Part shown: piece after piece, positions 455 through 5,652 of the stretch
How the letters are laid out: every line of letters starts with the position of its first letter
Position numbering within the stretch: the first letter of the stretch is position 1
From: a virus
DNA: 5,652 bases
Direction: 5' to 3' (one strand)
Virus genome (UHGV): UHGV-0478246
Notes under the pieces: model-generated
Seen by the model: only the letters and a program-made list of their open reading frames with translations
Told to the model about the DNA's origin: nothing
Databases searched by the model: none
Made by a program: the position numbers and the translations under genes

Positions 455-1663
455 CTACCATTTTGTTGTTACGGTTTTATCTACTCCCTTAAATTTCATC
501 TCCGGATCGTAGTGTTGTGTTACTGTCGATGAATTCTTGGGGGGTGTTTCGTTCATCCTTCTTTCCGTGTATTCTCTGATTGCCTTTCCTGTTTTTCCTC
601 CGATTGCCAGGTTCCCCACTAATTGTGCCAGCTTGATGATCGTATTCGCTATTTCGGTCCAATATTGGAGTTCTCGCAGGTCTGCGGTTGCTTCTTCGGT
701 TCTCTTTTTTGCTTCGAGTACTTTTGCTTCTGCTTCTTGGGTTTCGCCTGCTGCGTAGAAGTAAGCTGCTTGAGCCATTGCGCTGCATGCGTCTGCGTTT
801 ATTTTTTTGATTTCCGCTGATAGTTTTTCGTCTGCATATATGCTTTCCAGAGTTTTGATCGCCGCTGTTCCTTCGAGGATTTGTTTTTCGGCTTTCATCA
901 TATCGCCCTGGAATGATTCTTCTCCGAATATGATCTTCCCGAATTTATCGTCCTCTATTTCGAAGTATTTAGGTATCTCGATTTCTTTGCCGTCGATCGT
1001 CGTTTTTTTTGTGGGTTGCCATTTTACCATTTGGTCCCATAGTTGGTTCGCCGTATTGATGAAGCCCTTCCATCCTTCGAACATCTCTTGCTTTACTTGC
1101 CACAATCTTTTTTCGATTATCGTTTGGGTTTCCTCTTGGTTTTTGCCTGCTTCCGCTTCGAGTGCTTTTGCTTGCGTATTCAGTAGTTTGATTTCTGCTT
1201 CGTTCTTTCGTTCGCTCATCCGCACCTGTCGCAATGACATCAATGCTTGCAGTTGCATATTCGGATCGGCTGCCGATCCTGCTCCTGTAGCTCCTGTTGC
1301 ACCCATTGGAGCACCCGTCGTCGAACCGGCTCCTCCGCCTCCGGCACCTCCTTTGCCGTACATCAGACCGGGAGACAATCCCGCTGCATCCATTTGTGCG
1401 ACCTGGTTGGCATAGCTTTGGTCTTGGTAGGTTCTGTCGTATAATACCTGCTGTCTTTCGAATGCATTCTCCGCCGCCATTTCTCCGTATTTGTAATTTA
1501 TTTTGGCTGCATTCTCTGCCATCTCTTTCTGCTGCCTTATCTGTCTCCTCCTGCCTATGCCCAGCATGTTGCCGATACCTGAGATGCCGCCCATTATTCC
1601 CGAGAGAGGGTTCATAACATCCTCTCCTTTTTCGAGTAATTCAAGTAGTTTTTTAAAGTTCAT
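455..1663 (-). CDS. VP2 (minor capsid / DNA pilot protein), 402 aa.
   Basis: The ORF is given in the track. It lies immediately upstream of VP4, and a 107-aa ORF separates it from VP1. It contains '...YANQVAQMDAAGLSPGLMYGKGGAGGGG...', which resembles the AGLNPxL-Y-GG motif I recall from gokushovirus VP2. A Gly/Ala/Thr-rich flexible linker follows (about 1259-1387). The rest is coiled-coil-like and K/E/A/Q-rich. Confidence 0.75.
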   Translation of the reverse strand: MNFKKLLELLEKGEDVMNPLSGIMGGISGIGNMLGIGRRRQIRQQKEMAENAAKINYKYGEMAAENAFERQQVLYDRTYQDQSYANQVAQMDAAGLSPGLMYGKGGAGGGGAGSTTGAPMGATGATGAGSAADPNMQLQALMSLRQVRMSERKNEAEIKLLNTQAKALEAEAGKNQEETQTIIEKRLWQVKQEMFEGWKGFINTANQLWDQMVKWQPTKKTTIDGKEIEIPKYFEIEDDKFGKIIFGEESFQGDMMKAEKQILEGTAAIKTLESIYADEKLSAEIKKINADACSAMAQAAYFYAAGETQEAEAKVLEAKKRTEEATADLRELQYWTEIANTIIKLAQLVGNLAIGGKTGKAIREYTERRMNETPPKNSSTVTQHYDPEMKFKGVDKTVTTKW

Positions 1664-1817: not shown

Positions 1818-2141
1818 TTAGCTTTTTTCGGGATCGGTTTTTCCTTCTGTCCCGAAATTTTTCGCAGCCTCGGTTTCGCCCTTGTTTTTTGCGATTTGGT
1901 TTGCTGTACTTTGGTTGATCTTGTCTATTGCGTCTATCGCTACTTCGAATCGATCTGTTCTTATGTCGTATTCGGGTCGTACTCCATCTTTTTTTTCCGT
2001 GTAGATTGTTGGAAATACTCCATCCTCCATGTTACTGGCTTCTCCGCTGATTATCTTTCTTAGTTTTACTTCCCTCGGTTCTGCCTCGTAGGTAAGGTTC
2101 GGATTATCGATGCATCCTTTTCTATTTTTTGCTGTTTTCAT
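1818..2141 (-). CDS. Hypothetical protein, 107 aa, between VP1 and VP2. It could be a scaffold-like or accessory virion protein. The function is unsupported.
   Basis: The ORF is given in the track. Its start lies 4 nt after the VP1 stop. It uses the same strand and codon style as its neighbours. No motif recognised. Confidence 0.55.
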   Translation of the reverse strand: MKTAKNRKGCIDNPNLTYEAEPREVKLRKIISGEASNMEDGVFPTIYTEKKDGVRPEYDIRTDRFEVAIDAIDKINQSTANQIAKNKGETEAAKNFGTEGKTDPEKS

Positions 2142-2145
2142 GGTG

Positions 2146-4191
2146 TTATAAGTTTGGAATTTGTTTTGCTGACATTACTCTACGTGCTGTTACGTCGAAC
2201 GCCACTTGGACCCAGAAGTTTTGCGAGCTCAGTCTCGACTCCGCGAATATATTGTTATATATTGTCGGATCGATGTACGTCGACGCGTTAGAAATTGTTT
2301 TATTTATCCCTTCTTCGTATATTCTATTCAAACACATGAATGCTAAAGGCATTCCCGCGGCAAATTCGCCGTACGTTTCGTTTACGTCTGTCGTGTATTC
2401 GATCCATGACGGTTGTTTTCCTAATGATTGGTACGTGTGGTTGAAGTTTTCAGTGGTTTCTGTGCTCCATGCTGCTGCTTCTTCTGCTATCAGTTCTTGA
2501 AATCCGATTGCGTCCAATGTCGGCTTATGGAAGTCATCCATATTTTGCAGTCTTGTCCACCATTTGTTGCCTTGGCTGTAATCGATTCGGGGTGTAATCG
2601 ATCCCAAGGCCATGATCATGCTTGGCTCTGTGCATTTGATTTTCAAGCCCCTTCCGGATTTGTACATAGTTGCGACTCCTCGTCCGGCAAGTGTTCCTAA
2701 CGGTTCTTCATCTGTTGCTGAGTTTGATACGATTTCGTCGAATGCGATTTCGCTCTGCATTCCGCCGCAGAATATAGGAGATTCGGGTAGTGTCGTGCTT
2801 CTGACTCCGTATGTCGCTTCTCTCCATGCTTGGTAAGTACCATCCGTAATTGCTACGCGATTCAGCATGTTGAAGATCTTTTTTTGGAGGATCAGAGCAT
2901 CCATCGTAAGTTTTCCATCGCTCACATCTACCGCTGTGATCGCGTTGATCCCTCCGGTCGTCCCGTCGATCCACTCGGTGTTCAGCCAGTTGTTGAACCT
3001 GTCGCTAAGGTATGTTTTTACTGCCAGTCCTGCTTGTGAATACCATGAATTTGAACTGGTATAATATTTCGTGCGGTTATAGTTCGGTAGTCGTAAGGTT
3101 CCTATTGCAGCCGCATACGGCATTTTGTTGTCTTTTACTGTGTACACCGCAGAACTGGGTGCCGCTAAGATTGCCGTCCGTTCGTCGTCGATGTTTTTTA
3201 ATGGAAATTCTGTTAGTTTGATCTTCTGGTTGTCCGGCATTGTTAAATTGAATTCCCCGGCTATGTCTTGATTGTATGCAATTTTGATTGCTTTTTTGAC
3301 TTTGTACGCGTAAATGTTGGTCGCCTTTTTCGGGTTGTCCGGTGCCTTGAGTCCCAGCGCTTCCGGGTCTGTTCGTTCGAATACGAAGGAGTCTCCGAGT
3401 TTTGTCAGTTTGTTGGTTTTTGCTGTAGGGTTTTTCGGATCATTCGTTAAGAATTGTATTTCATTGACTTCCTCAGGTGAGATTTTTTCCTCGAATTCCA
3501 GTTTGATGTACATTGGTAAATTATCTGATGGACTGATTGTGTATGTTACACTTGAGTTGGTTAGCCATTCTTTAGTCCATTCGACTCCGCTTCCTACACT
3601 GATTTTCTTCCAAATATGGTTTATTCCGGTGATTACGTATGCGTTTTCTTCCTGTTTGTTGGCGTAATAGTTTTTGAATATGTCCCAGTACGCCAGATTG
3701 AATATCGCAGGAAATCTTCGGAGGTATTGATTGACTCTGGAGTGTCCGAATCCTTTTATTCCCAAGTATGAGAGTAGCGAGCTCGGATTGACCTGTCCTC
3801 TGTTGGTGTCGTCTTCATAGATCGATGCATTGGCTGTATATACTTGAAATTGCGGCAATAGTACCTTACTCATGTTCAACCCTACTCCTAAAGCGTTGTT
3901 ATGCAGTGCTGCTATATAGAGTCTGATCGGAATTACGAATACGTCGATTTGATGTTTGAAGCTGCCGAATACAGGTCCGGTTGTCGGCAGTGTTTTTACT
4001 TTTGTCGTGATATCGATGTAGAATGTCGTTCCGTCCATACCTATCTGGCACCAATAGGGAACGATTGTGCCGCATGCTTGTGATGTTCGGATTATTTTTC
4101 CTACGTTATGCGATGATCTACCGAAATTGGGTAGATATACTTCCATTTTGCTTTCGCTTCGGATTCTGTCTCCTCCTAATGTTTTTTTCAT
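2146..4191 (-). CDS. Major capsid protein VP1 (Microviridae F/VP1 family), 681 aa. The second Met, at codon 16 (about 4146), is a possible alternative start.
   Basis: The N-terminal signature 'FGRSSHNVGKIIRTSQACGTIVPYWCQIGMDGTTFYIDITTKVKTLPTTGPVFGSFKHQIDVFVIPIRLY' matches the microvirus pattern F.LSH...T...G.L.P....GD.F....R..P...P...FFVP.RL.W. The C-terminal 'NRVAITDGTYQAWREATYGV' matches the conserved GG.Y.DW....G region. Its size is larger than gokushovirus VP1 and typical of Bacteroidetes-associated microviruses. Confidence 0.9.
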   Translation of the reverse strand: MKKTLGGDRIRSESKMEVYLPNFGRSSHNVGKIIRTSQACGTIVPYWCQIGMDGTTFYIDITTKVKTLPTTGPVFGSFKHQIDVFVIPIRLYIAALHNNALGVGLNMSKVLLPQFQVYTANASIYEDDTNRGQVNPSSLLSYLGIKGFGHSRVNQYLRRFPAIFNLAYWDIFKNYYANKQEENAYVITGINHIWKKISVGSGVEWTKEWLTNSSVTYTISPSDNLPMYIKLEFEEKISPEEVNEIQFLTNDPKNPTAKTNKLTKLGDSFVFERTDPEALGLKAPDNPKKATNIYAYKVKKAIKIAYNQDIAGEFNLTMPDNQKIKLTEFPLKNIDDERTAILAAPSSAVYTVKDNKMPYAAAIGTLRLPNYNRTKYYTSSNSWYSQAGLAVKTYLSDRFNNWLNTEWIDGTTGGINAITAVDVSDGKLTMDALILQKKIFNMLNRVAITDGTYQAWREATYGVRSTTLPESPIFCGGMQSEIAFDEIVSNSATDEEPLGTLAGRGVATMYKSGRGLKIKCTEPSMIMALGSITPRIDYSQGNKWWTRLQNMDDFHKPTLDAIGFQELIAEEAAAWSTETTENFNHTYQSLGKQPSWIEYTTDVNETYGEFAAGMPLAFMCLNRIYEEGINKTISNASTYIDPTIYNNIFAESRLSSQNFWVQVAFDVTARRVMSAKQIPNL

Positions 4192-4194
4192 GGC

Positions 4195-4629
4195 TTATTT
4201 TATTTGATTGTTTTTCATTTCTTCGTTTACGTGCAGGATGAATATGAATGTTGCGGTCAGGATGTCTTCCCATTCTTTTTTAGCTATGTGTTTTTCCGCT
4301 TCTTCTTTAGTGTTGAATTCCTTTGCGTTCAACATCGAGCCGCACATTGTGATCACCCATTTGTTTTTCTTGTTGCGGATCAGTACGAATATGCCGTTTT
4401 TCGATTGTACTCTTTCTTCGATTTCGAGGTTTACGCTTTCGATTTCTTCTTCTTTTTTTCCGCTTTCGGCAAGTAGCTGATTTCTGAATTTTTTGTCCAT
4501 GTCGCTTGATTTTTTTTGTTGTTGATGCTTCGATTGTACTTTTTCTTCGATTTCGAGGTTTACGCTTTCGATTTCTTTTTCTTTTTTCTCGCTTTCGGCA
4601 AGTTGCTGATTTCTGGATTTTTTGTTCAT
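4195..4629 (-). CDS. Hypothetical protein, 144 aa. The N-terminal half is two 43-aa tandem repeats (K/E/Q-rich, coiled-coil-like). The C-terminal roughly 65 aa form a small globular-looking domain.
   Basis: The ORF is given in the track. Its stop lies 3 nt before the VP1 start. The repeat is visible at both protein and DNA level. The C-terminal 'GIFVLIRNKKNKWVITMCGSMLNAKEFNTKEEAEKHIAKKEW' loosely resembles a YegP/DUF1508-type beta-beta-alpha unit. That resemblance is weak. Confidence 0.65.
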   Translation of the reverse strand: MNKKSRNQQLAESEKKEKEIESVNLEIEEKVQSKHQQQKKSSDMDKKFRNQLLAESGKKEEEIESVNLEIEERVQSKNGIFVLIRNKKNKWVITMCGSMLNAKEFNTKEEAEKHIAKKEWEDILTATFIFILHVNEEMKNNQIK

Positions 4630-4672
4630 GTTACTTGATTTTTGTTGTTGTCGATACTTCGATTGTGTCGAT
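4401..4672. repeat. Direct tandem repeat with period 129 bp. There are two full copies (4401-4529 and 4530-4658, about 90% identical) plus a 12-14 nt partial third copy (4659-4672).
   Basis: Read directly from the sequence. 'tcgattgtac' recurs at 4401 and 4530, and 'tcgattgtgtcg' at 4659. The aligned copies differ by a few substitutions and small indels. Confidence 0.85.
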
Positions 4673-4801
4673 TTTGATGCCGCTTGCTTTGAGGTGGTGC
4701 TTATGAGTGCATCCTTGCTCTATGATTACGGCAGCTGCGGCGCCGATTGCGGCTGCTATTACCGCGATCCATTTTACGATTTTCTTTACTTTTTCATTCA
4801 T
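4631..4801 (-). CDS. Unannotated small ORF, 56 aa, with one predicted N-terminal transmembrane helix. Candidate membrane or lysis protein.
   Basis: My own translation, checked base by base: MNEKVKKIVKWIAVIAAAIGAAAAVIIEQGCTHKHHLKASGIKIDTIEVSTTTKIK*. The ATG at 4801..4799 overlaps the ORF119 stop (ATGAATGA). The TAA at 4633..4631 lies 1 nt before the ORF144 ATG. It fills what would otherwise be the only unexplained 164-nt gap in a tightly packed genome. It is below the 60-aa track cutoff. The GC-rich patch at 4729-4768 is its Ala/Gly-rich hydrophobic core. Confidence 0.55.
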   Translation of the reverse strand: MNEKVKKIVKWIAVIAAAIGAAAAVIIEQGCTHKHHLKASGIKIDTIEVSTTTKIK

Positions 4802-5153
4802 AGTTCAGTGATAATTGAGTGTCTGTGTTTTTGATCATTACTATCCTTCTGATAATAGGTTCGTACAGTTGTTTTCTTTCGTTGTATATCCAGTTGCTTA
4901 CCTCGTAGAAGCTGATGCCGGTTCTTTGTGGTTTTCGAGTATCTACGTATTCCTTGTCGAATGTTTCTCCGTCTTCTGTCACGTAGAATGTTCCTTCGTA
5001 TTGGAAGTTTCGTCTGGATACTGCTTCTGCACCGATCAGTTTTGTAAGATTAGTGGATCTATCTCCGATGTCTCCTCTTCCTTTGGTGAATTTATTATCC
5101 TGTTTCTGGTCAATATATTCTCTATTTTTCTGGTCGCAAATTCCGTTTCCCAT
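4794..5153 (-). CDS. Hypothetical protein, 119 aa, immediately downstream of VP4.
   Basis: The ORF is given in the track. Its ATG lies 3 nt after the VP4 TGA. Its stop overlaps the start of the 56-aa ORF. No motif recognised. Confidence 0.55.
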   Translation of the reverse strand: MGNGICDQKNREYIDQKQDNKFTKGRGDIGDRSTNLTKLIGAEAVSRRNFQYEGTFYVTEDGETFDKEYVDTRKPQRTGISFYEVSNWIYNERKQLYEPIIRRIVMIKNTDTQLSLNYE

Positions 5154-5156
5154 ATT

Positions 5157-5652
5157 TCACGAATTAATTGTTCCTTCTTTATGATCAGGTCTGCATATGC
5201 CTTGCATATTTCCTTCTTTTCTCTTTCCGTCATATTTTTTGATCGATTGCCAATATTTTACTGCGTGTACATACTCTTCGTATTGTTTTATTGTTTCCAC
5301 TTTGATAGGAGTTTTGTTGTAGTACTTTACTTGTTTTTCCTCTTTTATGATCCGGAGGGCTTCGCGTTCTTGATCTGTCCATATTTTTTGCTTGTAGTAT
5401 GTCGGTAGTGCTACTTTTATTCCTGATTCTGTTCTGTATGTTTCTTCTGTGAATTTATCCTGATATCTATGCCTGTTGAGTGTGTTTTTGTTTATGTAGT
5501 TTATTCCGATTTTTTTTGAGGTGAATATTTTTCCGTTGAATTCAGGGTTGCTTTCGTCTTTTTTCGTTATGTATTTTATGATGTAGTTTATTGTTCTTTC
5601 GTTTACTTCATACCCGAAGAATACCCAGCCGTACCCCCATTCTTTTTCGAAT
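5157..5652 (-). CDS. Replication initiation protein VP4, C-terminal portion. It enters at the right edge and stops with TGA at 5159..5157. Total length is about 303 aa if joined to 1..416.
   Basis: Minus-strand translation gives FEKEWGYGWVFFGYEVNERTINYIIKYITKKDESNPEF... The stretch NYIIKYITK is the RCR motif 3 (Y-x-x-K-Y catalytic tyrosines, about 5562-5585). The spacing from motif 2 is about 35 aa across the junction, as in microvirus Rep proteins. Confidence 0.8.
   Translation of the reverse strand, partial: FEKEWGYGWVFFGYEVNERTINYIIKYITKKDESNPEFNGKIFTSKKIGINYINKNTLNRHRYQDKFTEETYRTESGIKVALPTYYKQKIWTDQEREALRIIKEEKQVKYYNKTPIKVETIKQYEEYVHAVKYWQSIKKYDGKRKEGNMQGICRPDHKEGTINS

Follow-up and report, generated by a model that had tools for sequence, protein, structure and literature searches.

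A constrained 56-codon gene upstream of VP1 in a gut microvirus genome: a predicted membrane peptide and candidate lysis or release effector

The ORF56 locus and its conservation

ORF56 is a short open reading frame (ORF) in the viral genome UHGV-0478246 whose product, we argue below, is a membrane-anchored peptide and possibly the lysis or release effector of the phage. The analyzed stretch of DNA (5652 nucleotides, nt), hereafter the window, is by its behavior a complete circular gut microvirus genome in which every gene lies on the minus strand. ORF56 occupies 4801..4631 (minus) and consists of 56 codons and a TAA stop (MNEKVKKIVKWIAVIAAAIGAAAAVIIEQGCTHKHHLKASGIKIDTIEVSTTTKIK). A preliminary description of this DNA had reported a 56-residue ORF at 4631-4801 with a Lys-rich N-terminus followed by a hydrophobic stretch of about 18 residues; the ORF and both features can be read directly from the sequence, the hydrophobic stretch being 17 residues long rather than 18. 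The same description placed the gene between VP4 and VP1, but the end of VP4 lies at 5157 and the start of VP1 at 4191, and the direct neighbors are ORF119 (5153..4794, minus), the stop of which overlaps the start of ORF56, and ORF144 (4629..4195, minus), its downstream neighbor and partner in a conserved module. The start codon of ORF56 lies over the ORF119 stop in an 8-nt overlap (ATGAATGA; 4794..4801, minus), and at the other end the TAAcATG junction (4627..4633, minus) joins the ORF56 stop, a single base and the ORF144 start. Both coupled junctions had been pointed out before and both are conserved, the ATGAATGA overlap in 39 of 42 relatives and the stop-N-ATG arrangement in all of the relatives compared (of 42).

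The encoded peptide is built from four successive segments. Codons 1-10 (4772..4801, minus) specify a basic N-region, MNEKVKKIVK, with four Lys and one Glu, in which M1, E3 and K10 are invariant and N2, K4, K6 and K7 are conserved in at least 90% of the sequences. Codons 11-27 (4721..4771, minus) specify the hydrophobic Ala/Gly-rich helix WIAVIAAAIGAAAAVII, a predicted signal-anchor or transmembrane segment. Codons 28-31 (4709..4720, minus) form the invariant EQGC motif (Glu and Gln in 104 of 105 sequences each, Gly and Cys in 105 of 105), which places Cys31 at the site of the lipidated Cys of the relatives described below. The remainder is a polar tail of 25 residues, THKHHLKASGIKIDTIEVSTTTKIK (4634..4708, minus), which is predicted to be periplasmic and to form a low-confidence beta-hairpin; here G41 is invariant and K38, A39, K43, D45 and V49 are conserved in at least 90%. 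Pro is absent from the whole of ORF56. Metal binding by C31, H33, H35 and H36 was considered, but the His residues become Asn or Tyr in one subclade.

A search of 5.8 billion proteins recovered 187 clusters of ORF56 homologues (80-96% identity), nearly all of exactly 56 amino acids (aa) and located on contigs of ~5.5-5.7 kb, and 37 related loci, mostly complete genomes, were obtained from IMG/VR. In a gap-free codon alignment of 37 distinct ORF56 sequences, 18, 7 and 41 variable sites fall at the first, second and third codon positions, and the ratio of nonsynonymous to synonymous substitution (dN/dS, Nei-Gojobori) is 0.087 at a synonymous divergence (pS) of ~0.33. The other forward frames and two of the reverse frames give dN/dS >1.6 in the same 37 sequences, while the one reverse frame that shares wobble positions contains stops in most genomes. 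When the same measure was applied to seven genes in 32 close genomes, ORF56 had the lowest value (0.063), followed by VP2 (0.087), ORF107 (0.114), VP1 (0.143), ORF144 (0.275), ORF65 (0.29) and ORF119 (0.53). The constraint is concentrated in codons 1-31 (dN/dS 0.026, pS 0.35) as compared with the tail (dN/dS 0.18), synonymous divergence being equal in the two parts.

ORF56 is thus a genuine gene and the most strongly conserved among the compared genes of the phage. That the frame might instead be open by chance, in DNA between genes or overlapping them, could be entertained for an ORF so short that it fell under the size cutoff of the first scan and that belongs to no database family, but this explanation is effectively refuted, with a probability we regard as negligible, by the exact 56-codon length in more than 100 clusters, by the codon-position-specific substitutions with dN/dS of 0.06-0.09 at pS ~0.33, and by the other frames being either closed or at dN/dS >1.6. 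The conserved start and stop junctions and the positional counterparts in distant genomes stand against it as well, and the earlier suggestion of a hidden small gene is borne out by the 187 clusters.

Family searches place ORF56 in no described group. Against Pfam, PHROGs and NCBIfam it gave sub-threshold noise only (MNSV_P7B, E 0.075; SPW_0924, E 2.2), and no family of these three collections covers ORF56 or its lipoprotein relatives. A tblastn search of 50,697 phage records returned no match, although the active low-complexity filter may have masked the Ala-rich helix. An exhaustive profile search of 1.84 billion representatives returned the ORF56 family alone, plus the repeat protein P0297 (769 aa, secreted-looking), which contains five copies of LKVNGVCVDTIQVSATHKLK that closely resemble the ORF56 tail sequence LKASGIKIDTIEVSTTTKIK; we judged this resemblance coincidental, as repeats inflate the score.

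The membrane helix, the invariant cysteine and lipoproteins of the same slot

The helix segment WIAVIAAAIGAAAAVII has a Kyte-Doolittle mean of 2.59 over a 17-residue window, and among ORFs of 25 aa or more, taken over every coding-strand frame, no other has a hydrophobic window that reaches 1.6. The coding strand consists of 41% A and 17% T, which makes hydrophobic frames scarce on this strand and common on its complement. AlphaFold2, run with 110 family sequences, predicts a helix over residues 3-29, with a predicted local distance difference test score (pLDDT) of 84-88 over residues 1-20 and a mean pLDDT of 74; in the tail, strands at residues 31-37 and 47-53 are modeled as a low-confidence hairpin (pLDDT ~62-65). 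The prediction of a small membrane-targeted protein made in the preliminary description is thereby supported at the level of hydropathy and modeling. An orientation with the N-terminus in the cytoplasm (N-in) is likely from the charge distribution, but the positive-inside bias is modest, since the tail too carries a net positive charge. Small residues recur at every fourth position along the helix (A13/A17/A21 and A16/G20/A24), a pattern that is compatible with helix-helix packing or self-association.

Around Cys31 the peptide has several properties of a lipoprotein precursor, including a basic n-region followed by an uncharged hydrophobic h-region and a Cys that lies within approximately residues 15-35. 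The lipobox consensus, however, is [LVI][ASTVI][GAS]C (quoted in PMC6139136), and the PROSITE PS51257-like rule as we implemented it allows [LIVMFWSTAG] at position -3. The corresponding sequence of ORF56, IEQGC, has Glu at -3 and Gln at -2 and violates both rules, and a strict lipobox scan found no match in the window or in any close relative. The family referred to here as L054-type, a canonical lipoprotein family of more distant relatives, has a lipobox that varies in the usual manner (Ser or Gly at -1, Thr or Ala at -2), whereas the E-Q-G of ORF56 is invariant. The distribution of constraint also differs, as the pairwise identities before the lipobox and after the Cys are 0.90 and 0.70 for ORF56, 0.63 and 0.95 for the L054-type, and 0.65 and 0.85 for a second canonical family, the L078-type. 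The pattern in ORF56 is therefore inverted relative to both lipoprotein families, its helix being more conserved than its tail. Since a signal that is cleaved and discarded would not be expected to be the most conserved part of a protein, we read the signal helix of ORF56 as retained; it probably stays in place as a membrane anchor with a functional importance of its own. Atypical lipidation at Cys31 is conceivable, though on balance we doubt it, and cleavage by signal peptidase I after the Ala run seems to us distinctly improbable.

The relatives of the lipoprotein kind were found by scanning the coding strands of genomes whose VP1 is 37-60% identical for small hydrophobic ORFs and PROSITE-like lipoboxes. 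In many of these distant relatives a small ORF begins with a basic N-terminus, continues through a hydrophobic stretch to a canonical lipobox and closes with a short polar tail, and several types can be distinguished: LLTSC|NAKQFVSQSASTFKSGDTVVTKITYEQVGTIKK (L043, L044, L054 and L068); TTSC, FTSC or TTGC followed by AV(T/N)H(K/R)VVQS...GDSI.I.YEQ (L001, L075, L079, L081 and L082); FTSC|SASYMLHKKGLHADSVEVWIKTKTNNAAY (L076-78 and L080); VQSC|TMSMS... (L055, L062 and L064); GVSC|TNML... (L066 and L067); LLAC|TNSL... (L070); and two shorter lipobox ORFs (L048 and L090). Across the relatives these precursors are 49-75 aa long, with mature parts of 26-41 aa and no acidic residues after the Cys. Two of them, L055 5460-5660 (…TVQSC) and L066 4252-4464 (…LGVSC), show weak sub-threshold similarity to the NCBIfam 'smalltalk protein' model NF033879 (E 0.009 and 0.016, respectively). 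A hidden Markov model (HMM) of the ORF144 C-terminal domain reveals the order small lipobox ORF, ORF144-like gene, VP1 in ~20 genomes, the genes usually abutting or overlapping, and ORF56 occupies this same slot directly ahead of an ORF144-like gene that is followed by VP1. Canonical signals such as LLTSC, FTSC and LLAC are found in the slot in gut microviruses with a capsid protein 40-57% identical.

The similarity extends beyond position to sequence. Compared by hhalign, the ORF56 family and the L078-type family (54 clusters) align over 44 columns (75.7%, E 2.4e-5) with the Cys in register, and LKASGIKIDTIEVSTTTK and MLHKKGLHADSVEVWIKTK also align. The motif G-[IL]-[KH]-x-D-[ST]-[IV]-E-V is common to the tails of both families at an equal distance from the Cys, and an ungapped tail alignment anchored on the Cys alone gives p ~1e-4 to 4e-4 against shuffled tails. 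The L054-type family (111 clusters) gives no hhalign signal with ORF56 (probability 2%), and the link of ORF56 to lipoproteins thus runs through the L078-type and not the L054-type. Two proteins of 71 aa, P0281 and P0282, are chimeras that begin like the L078-type (signal and CSAS) and continue with a tail of the L054/L001-like kind (…VAQSVSSYTKGDTTTTIIKYEQVGNIRK), which suggests modular exchange of types within one slot. We consider it likely, with moderate support, that ORF56 is homologous to the lipoproteins of the slot, a homology that such very short sequences do not prove. The preliminary description mentioned neither the invariant Cys31 nor this link to the tiny lipoprotein genes of the same slot.

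Some relatives (L045, L046, L061 and L069) have no lipobox ORF and carry a different ORF of 50-60 aa with motifs like ...EVIARVIPTVNNWSGTALVLKVLNFL... (L045 2213-2365; L046 697-879 and 3578-3760; L061 164-346 and 2888-3070; L069 3744-3905). In L046 and L061 the two related copies of this alternative ORF lie at separate sites in the genome.

A possible lysis or release function and its rivals

We tentatively propose that ORF56 is the lysis or release effector of this phage, a reading to which we give slightly less than even confidence and which is our best guess because the genome encodes no peptidase and no other membrane protein. Pfam and PHROG scans of six ORFs (ORF56, ORF119, ORF144, VP1, ORF107 and VP2) revealed no peptidase or lysozyme domain, and, in a genome without a recognizable lysin, ORF56 stands alone as a product that could plausibly act on the envelope. 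The one cultured Bacteroides microvirus, phiHBP1, uses an M15 peptidase (PMC13064476); a homologue of this enzyme was not found in the present genome and occurs in just two of the fetched genomes, too few to assess whether M15 peptidase and small ORF are mutually exclusive. Very small phages typically lyse their hosts through one small membrane protein (PMC7693330), and one L078-type member carries the name 'Lysis protein' in nr.

Under this proposal, the product of ORF56 would be a 56-residue envelope peptide whose Lys-rich N-terminus remains in the cytoplasm, whose 17-residue Ala/Gly-rich helix enters the inner membrane and whose 25-residue basic tail, possibly folded as a beta-hairpin, extends toward the periplasm. 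It would most likely derive from the mini-lipoprotein family of the slot, the lipobox having degenerated to IEQGC and the signal helix probably having been kept as a permanent anchor that is now the most constrained part of the protein. We infer that the peptide is made along with the late or structural module and that it would act as a single-gene lysis or release effector at the interface of inner membrane and periplasm, possibly through self-association of the helix that damages the membrane or through a block of an envelope-biogenesis target. In function it would be comparable to the small single-gene lysis proteins and to the colicin-release lipoproteins. A bolder extension, which we hold to be unlikely though worth stating, is that the slot houses an undescribed superfamily of mini-lipoproteins and derived membrane peptides that are the lysis genes of these phages, with the ORF56 lineage having swapped its lipid anchor for a helix. 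Such a superfamily would give a large clade of gut microviruses, from animals and humans, a single-gene lysis system of the lipoprotein type analogous to the colicin-release proteins, and this too we would count as improbable rather than expected.

Several observations weigh against this function. L002, the closest outgroup (VP1 56-57% identical), is without any hydrophobic small ORF, and the slot gene is therefore not universal. The preliminary description had offered the ORF as a lysis candidate, and of this proposal a real small membrane-targeted gene in a genome without a recognizable lysin stands, with the lack of such an ORF in L002 counting against the rest. A lipobox ORF and an M15 peptidase are both missing from many of the more distant relatives. 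When ORFs with transmembrane helices from single-stranded RNA phages were tested on a large scale, most were without lytic effect (PMC7693330), so that the presence of such a helix alone predicts little. Quasi-lysis of the colicin type runs through the outer-membrane phospholipase (PMC2896534), and whether such a route would release a virion of ~25 nm, or is present in the host, is questionable. Lastly, ORF56 resembles neither the colicin lysis proteins nor the phiX174 E-type families, and it matches no Pfam, PHROG or NCBIfam model.

Comparison with known systems helps to define what kind of protein ORF56 may be. Like phiX174 E, MS2 L and LysM, it is a small protein of a tiny phage with one membrane helix. 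The helix of phiX174 E contains a conserved Pro and the protein has an N-out orientation, whereas ORF56 lacks Pro and is predicted to be N-in; gene E lies inside gene D in another frame, whereas ORF56 is free-standing, with its 8-nt overlap with ORF119 and no overlap with ORF144. We rejected an assignment to the phiX174 E type on these grounds (no Pro, not embedded) and on the lack of sequence similarity in PHROG, Pfam and the exhaustive profile search. Single-gene lysis proteins (Sgl) in general have a functional helix and no muralytic enzyme, arise repeatedly and are lineage-specific (PMC7693330). ORF56 differs in having lipoprotein relatives, as no such link was found for any Sgl in the literature searched.

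The colicin-release proteins are lipoproteins of small size (~47 aa) that permeabilize the envelope, cause quasi-lysis and are lethal when over-made (PMC2896534). Those of the family PF02402 (Lysis_col) have precursors of 40-49 aa in which a basic N-terminus precedes a hydrophobic signal and a Cys, and their mature part is ~28 residues long. ORF56 is near this size class, with 56 aa and 25-26 residues after the Cys, and like these proteins it has Gly at +10 from the Cys, but its lipobox is not valid. The L078-type family matches the colicin-release proteins weakly (hhalign 67%, E 5e-5), sharing the signal, the Cys, C-x-A-x-Y-[IM] and Gly +10. ORF56 itself has no match to PF02402 at E up to 10 and an hhalign probability of 0.5% against eight colicin-release lysis proteins taken from plasmids, and on these two results membership in the colicin-release family was rejected. 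It differs further in being phage-borne and not part of a colicin operon, in its IEQGC sequence, in the constraint on its signal helix and in its likely host, which is not an enterobacterium.

Lipoprotein genes are otherwise rare in phages (PMC6139136). The T5 protein Llp is a small phage lipoprotein that faces the periplasm and acts on an outer-membrane protein (PMC9586334), and the relatives of ORF56 are likewise, judging by their sequences, small periplasm-facing lipoproteins. The mature part of Llp is about twice as long and is folded, and it has no similarity to ORF56, which lacks a valid lipobox. The spanins (the lambda o-spanin Rz1 and the T1 u-spanin gp11) are small phage lipoproteins devoted to lysis; an o-spanin depends on a partner in the inner membrane and on an endolysin/holin system, and in a u-spanin the transmembrane helix is C-terminal. 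A spanin assignment was rejected, since no second hydrophobic ORF is present on the coding strand, no muralytic domain was found and the C-terminus of ORF56 is polar. A holin or pinholin was likewise rejected on the lack of an endolysin or peptidase domain in the six ORFs scanned and of an M15 homologue.

Two other kinds of function have to be weighed against lysis or release. One is that ORF56 is a superinfection-exclusion or receptor-masking factor, its anchored periplasmic tail binding the outer-membrane receptor of the phage on its periplasmic face or blocking DNA entry and thereby protecting infected cells and sparing progeny from loss on debris, as the small lipoprotein Llp of T5 does with FhuA. 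We consider this unlikely but a serious contender. The lipoproteins of the same slot are canonical and small and, having no acidic residues after the Cys, would face the periplasm; phage lipoproteins in such a role are well documented (PMC9586334; bioRxiv 10.64898/2026.03.26.714494). The tails appear to be swapped like cassettes among lineages (the L054-, L078-, L001-, L062- and L066-types and the chimeric P0281 and P0282), as would be expected if the partner were a variable host surface protein, and absence of the gene from the closest outgroup, L002, is what an accessory gene might show. However, mature parts of 25-40 residues compare poorly with the ~60 residues and defined fold of Llp, and no exclusion lipoprotein model in NCBIfam or Pfam matches the sequence. 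It would also be unusual for an accessory 'moron' to be the most constrained gene and to be present in essentially all close relatives, and the constraint falls on the membrane helix rather than on the exposed tail that is meant to bind. An exclusion function would, moreover, leave the phage without any lysis candidate.

The other alternative is a different membrane role, such as a tether for replication or assembly at the inner membrane or an effect on the host's envelope physiology or stress responses, to which we assign a small probability, perhaps somewhat more. It draws on the tight coupling of ORF56 to ORF119 and ORF144, two genes without assigned function, in a capsid-adjacent module, and on the fact that no family assignment constrains what the protein does. 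To our knowledge, a dedicated membrane tether of this sort has no precedent in microviruses, and the single invariant Cys that aligns with the lipidation Cys would be left unexplained. In one variant, signal peptidase I would cut IGAAA|A and free a 33-residue peptide into the periplasm, G20-A21-A22-A23 resembling a helix breaker and an AxA cleavage site; yet the hydrophobic run extends four residues beyond this putative site and the whole helix is nearly invariant, whereas cleavable signals normally drift, as they do in the L054- and L078-types.

What is known in this field is the existence of small envelope-active phage proteins as a kind; what appears to be new is the ORF56 family, its slot and the apparent switch from lipid to helix anchor. 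Our literature searches turned up no account of lipoproteins in microviruses and, apart from protein E and the peptidases, none of lysis genes in these phages. Phages of this sort are among the commonest viruses of animal and human guts, and outside the phiX174 group their exit from the cell is largely unknown, some encoding a peptidase and most encoding nothing recognizable. A vague 'small transmembrane ORF' has now become a defined candidate, namely the most constrained gene, set in a conserved capsid-adjacent module and related to textbook mini-lipoproteins. Were the lysis role true, it would represent a new class of small lytic or envelope-active peptides working on envelopes of the Bacteroidales type and a natural case of lipid and transmembrane anchors replacing one another; were superinfection exclusion true instead, microviruses would gain their first described function of that kind.

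Neighboring genes, the 129-nt duplication and related contigs

ORF144 has no Pfam or PHROG assignment. Its N-terminal part is variable and rich in Lys, Glu and Ser, whereas its C-terminal domain of ~65 aa is conserved and ends in a moderately hydrophobic helix. With the HMM of this domain, a homologue lying directly upstream of VP1 was detected in 32 of the fetched genomes (for example, L001 1599-1967, L002 5214-5525 and L070 3861-4136). A 129-nt tandem duplication (4400-4528 and 4529-4657, two copies at 91% identity) reaches from the last eight codons of ORF56 through the first 34 codons of ORF144, and the last 27 nt of ORF56 fall in copy 2, in agreement with the earlier statement that the 3' end of the ORF is part of the duplication. 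ORF144 runs in frame through the downstream copy, where what used to be the ORF56 tail, the stop and the ATG now read ...HQQQKKSSDMDKK.... The event leaves ORF56 unchanged and lengthens ORF144 by 43 in-frame codons (101 to 144 aa). As the homologues of ORF144 in relatives are 101 or 119 aa long (with single cases of 100 and 152 aa), the duplication is recent and private to this genome. It does not indicate an evolutionarily fluid locus, as had been supposed, since it is a private event that lengthens ORF144 beside the most constrained gene of the phage.

Rep/VP4 (303 aa, minus) starts at 416, wraps round the window ends and stops at 5157; its start codon is GTG here (VCLYPSTIENPKY...), whereas relatives use ATG (MCLYP...). 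ORF65 (5233..5036, minus) overlaps, in another frame, both Rep/VP4 (at its 3' end) and ORF119 (at its 5' end), and is present in 32 of 32 close genomes (dN/dS 0.29). ORF119 is likewise present in 32 of 32 close relatives and is weakly constrained (dN/dS 0.53). Downstream of ORF144 lie VP1 (4191..2146, minus; 681 aa), with a partial match to Pfam Phage_F and a match to phrog_514, ORF107 (2141..1818, minus) and the VP2 pilot protein (1663..455, minus).

The closest records belong to unclassified microviruses of animal and human guts and include five 'Parabacteroides' records. The label 'gokushovirus-type' used in the preliminary description is not supported by these records or by the VP1 of 681 aa. 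The only match among contigs of genome collections, L072 (NZ_JACWEU010000076.1), is a free contig of 5673 nt in an Acinetobacter lwoffii assembly and represents a complete relative with VP1 85% identical; its presence there more likely reflects contamination of the sample or sequencing than a host signal. Two longer IMG/VR contigs, L073 (5543-11224) and L074 (1-4175), contain a full or partial copy of this microvirus, fused within VP2 to unrelated DNA. As both join the foreign DNA inside VP2, they were set aside as probable chimeric assemblies rather than prophages. The break point of L073 is a Gly-rich stretch of VP2, and its foreign DNA encodes tyrosine-recombinase-like and ATPase-like proteins, while that of L074 carries tailed-phage-like genes.

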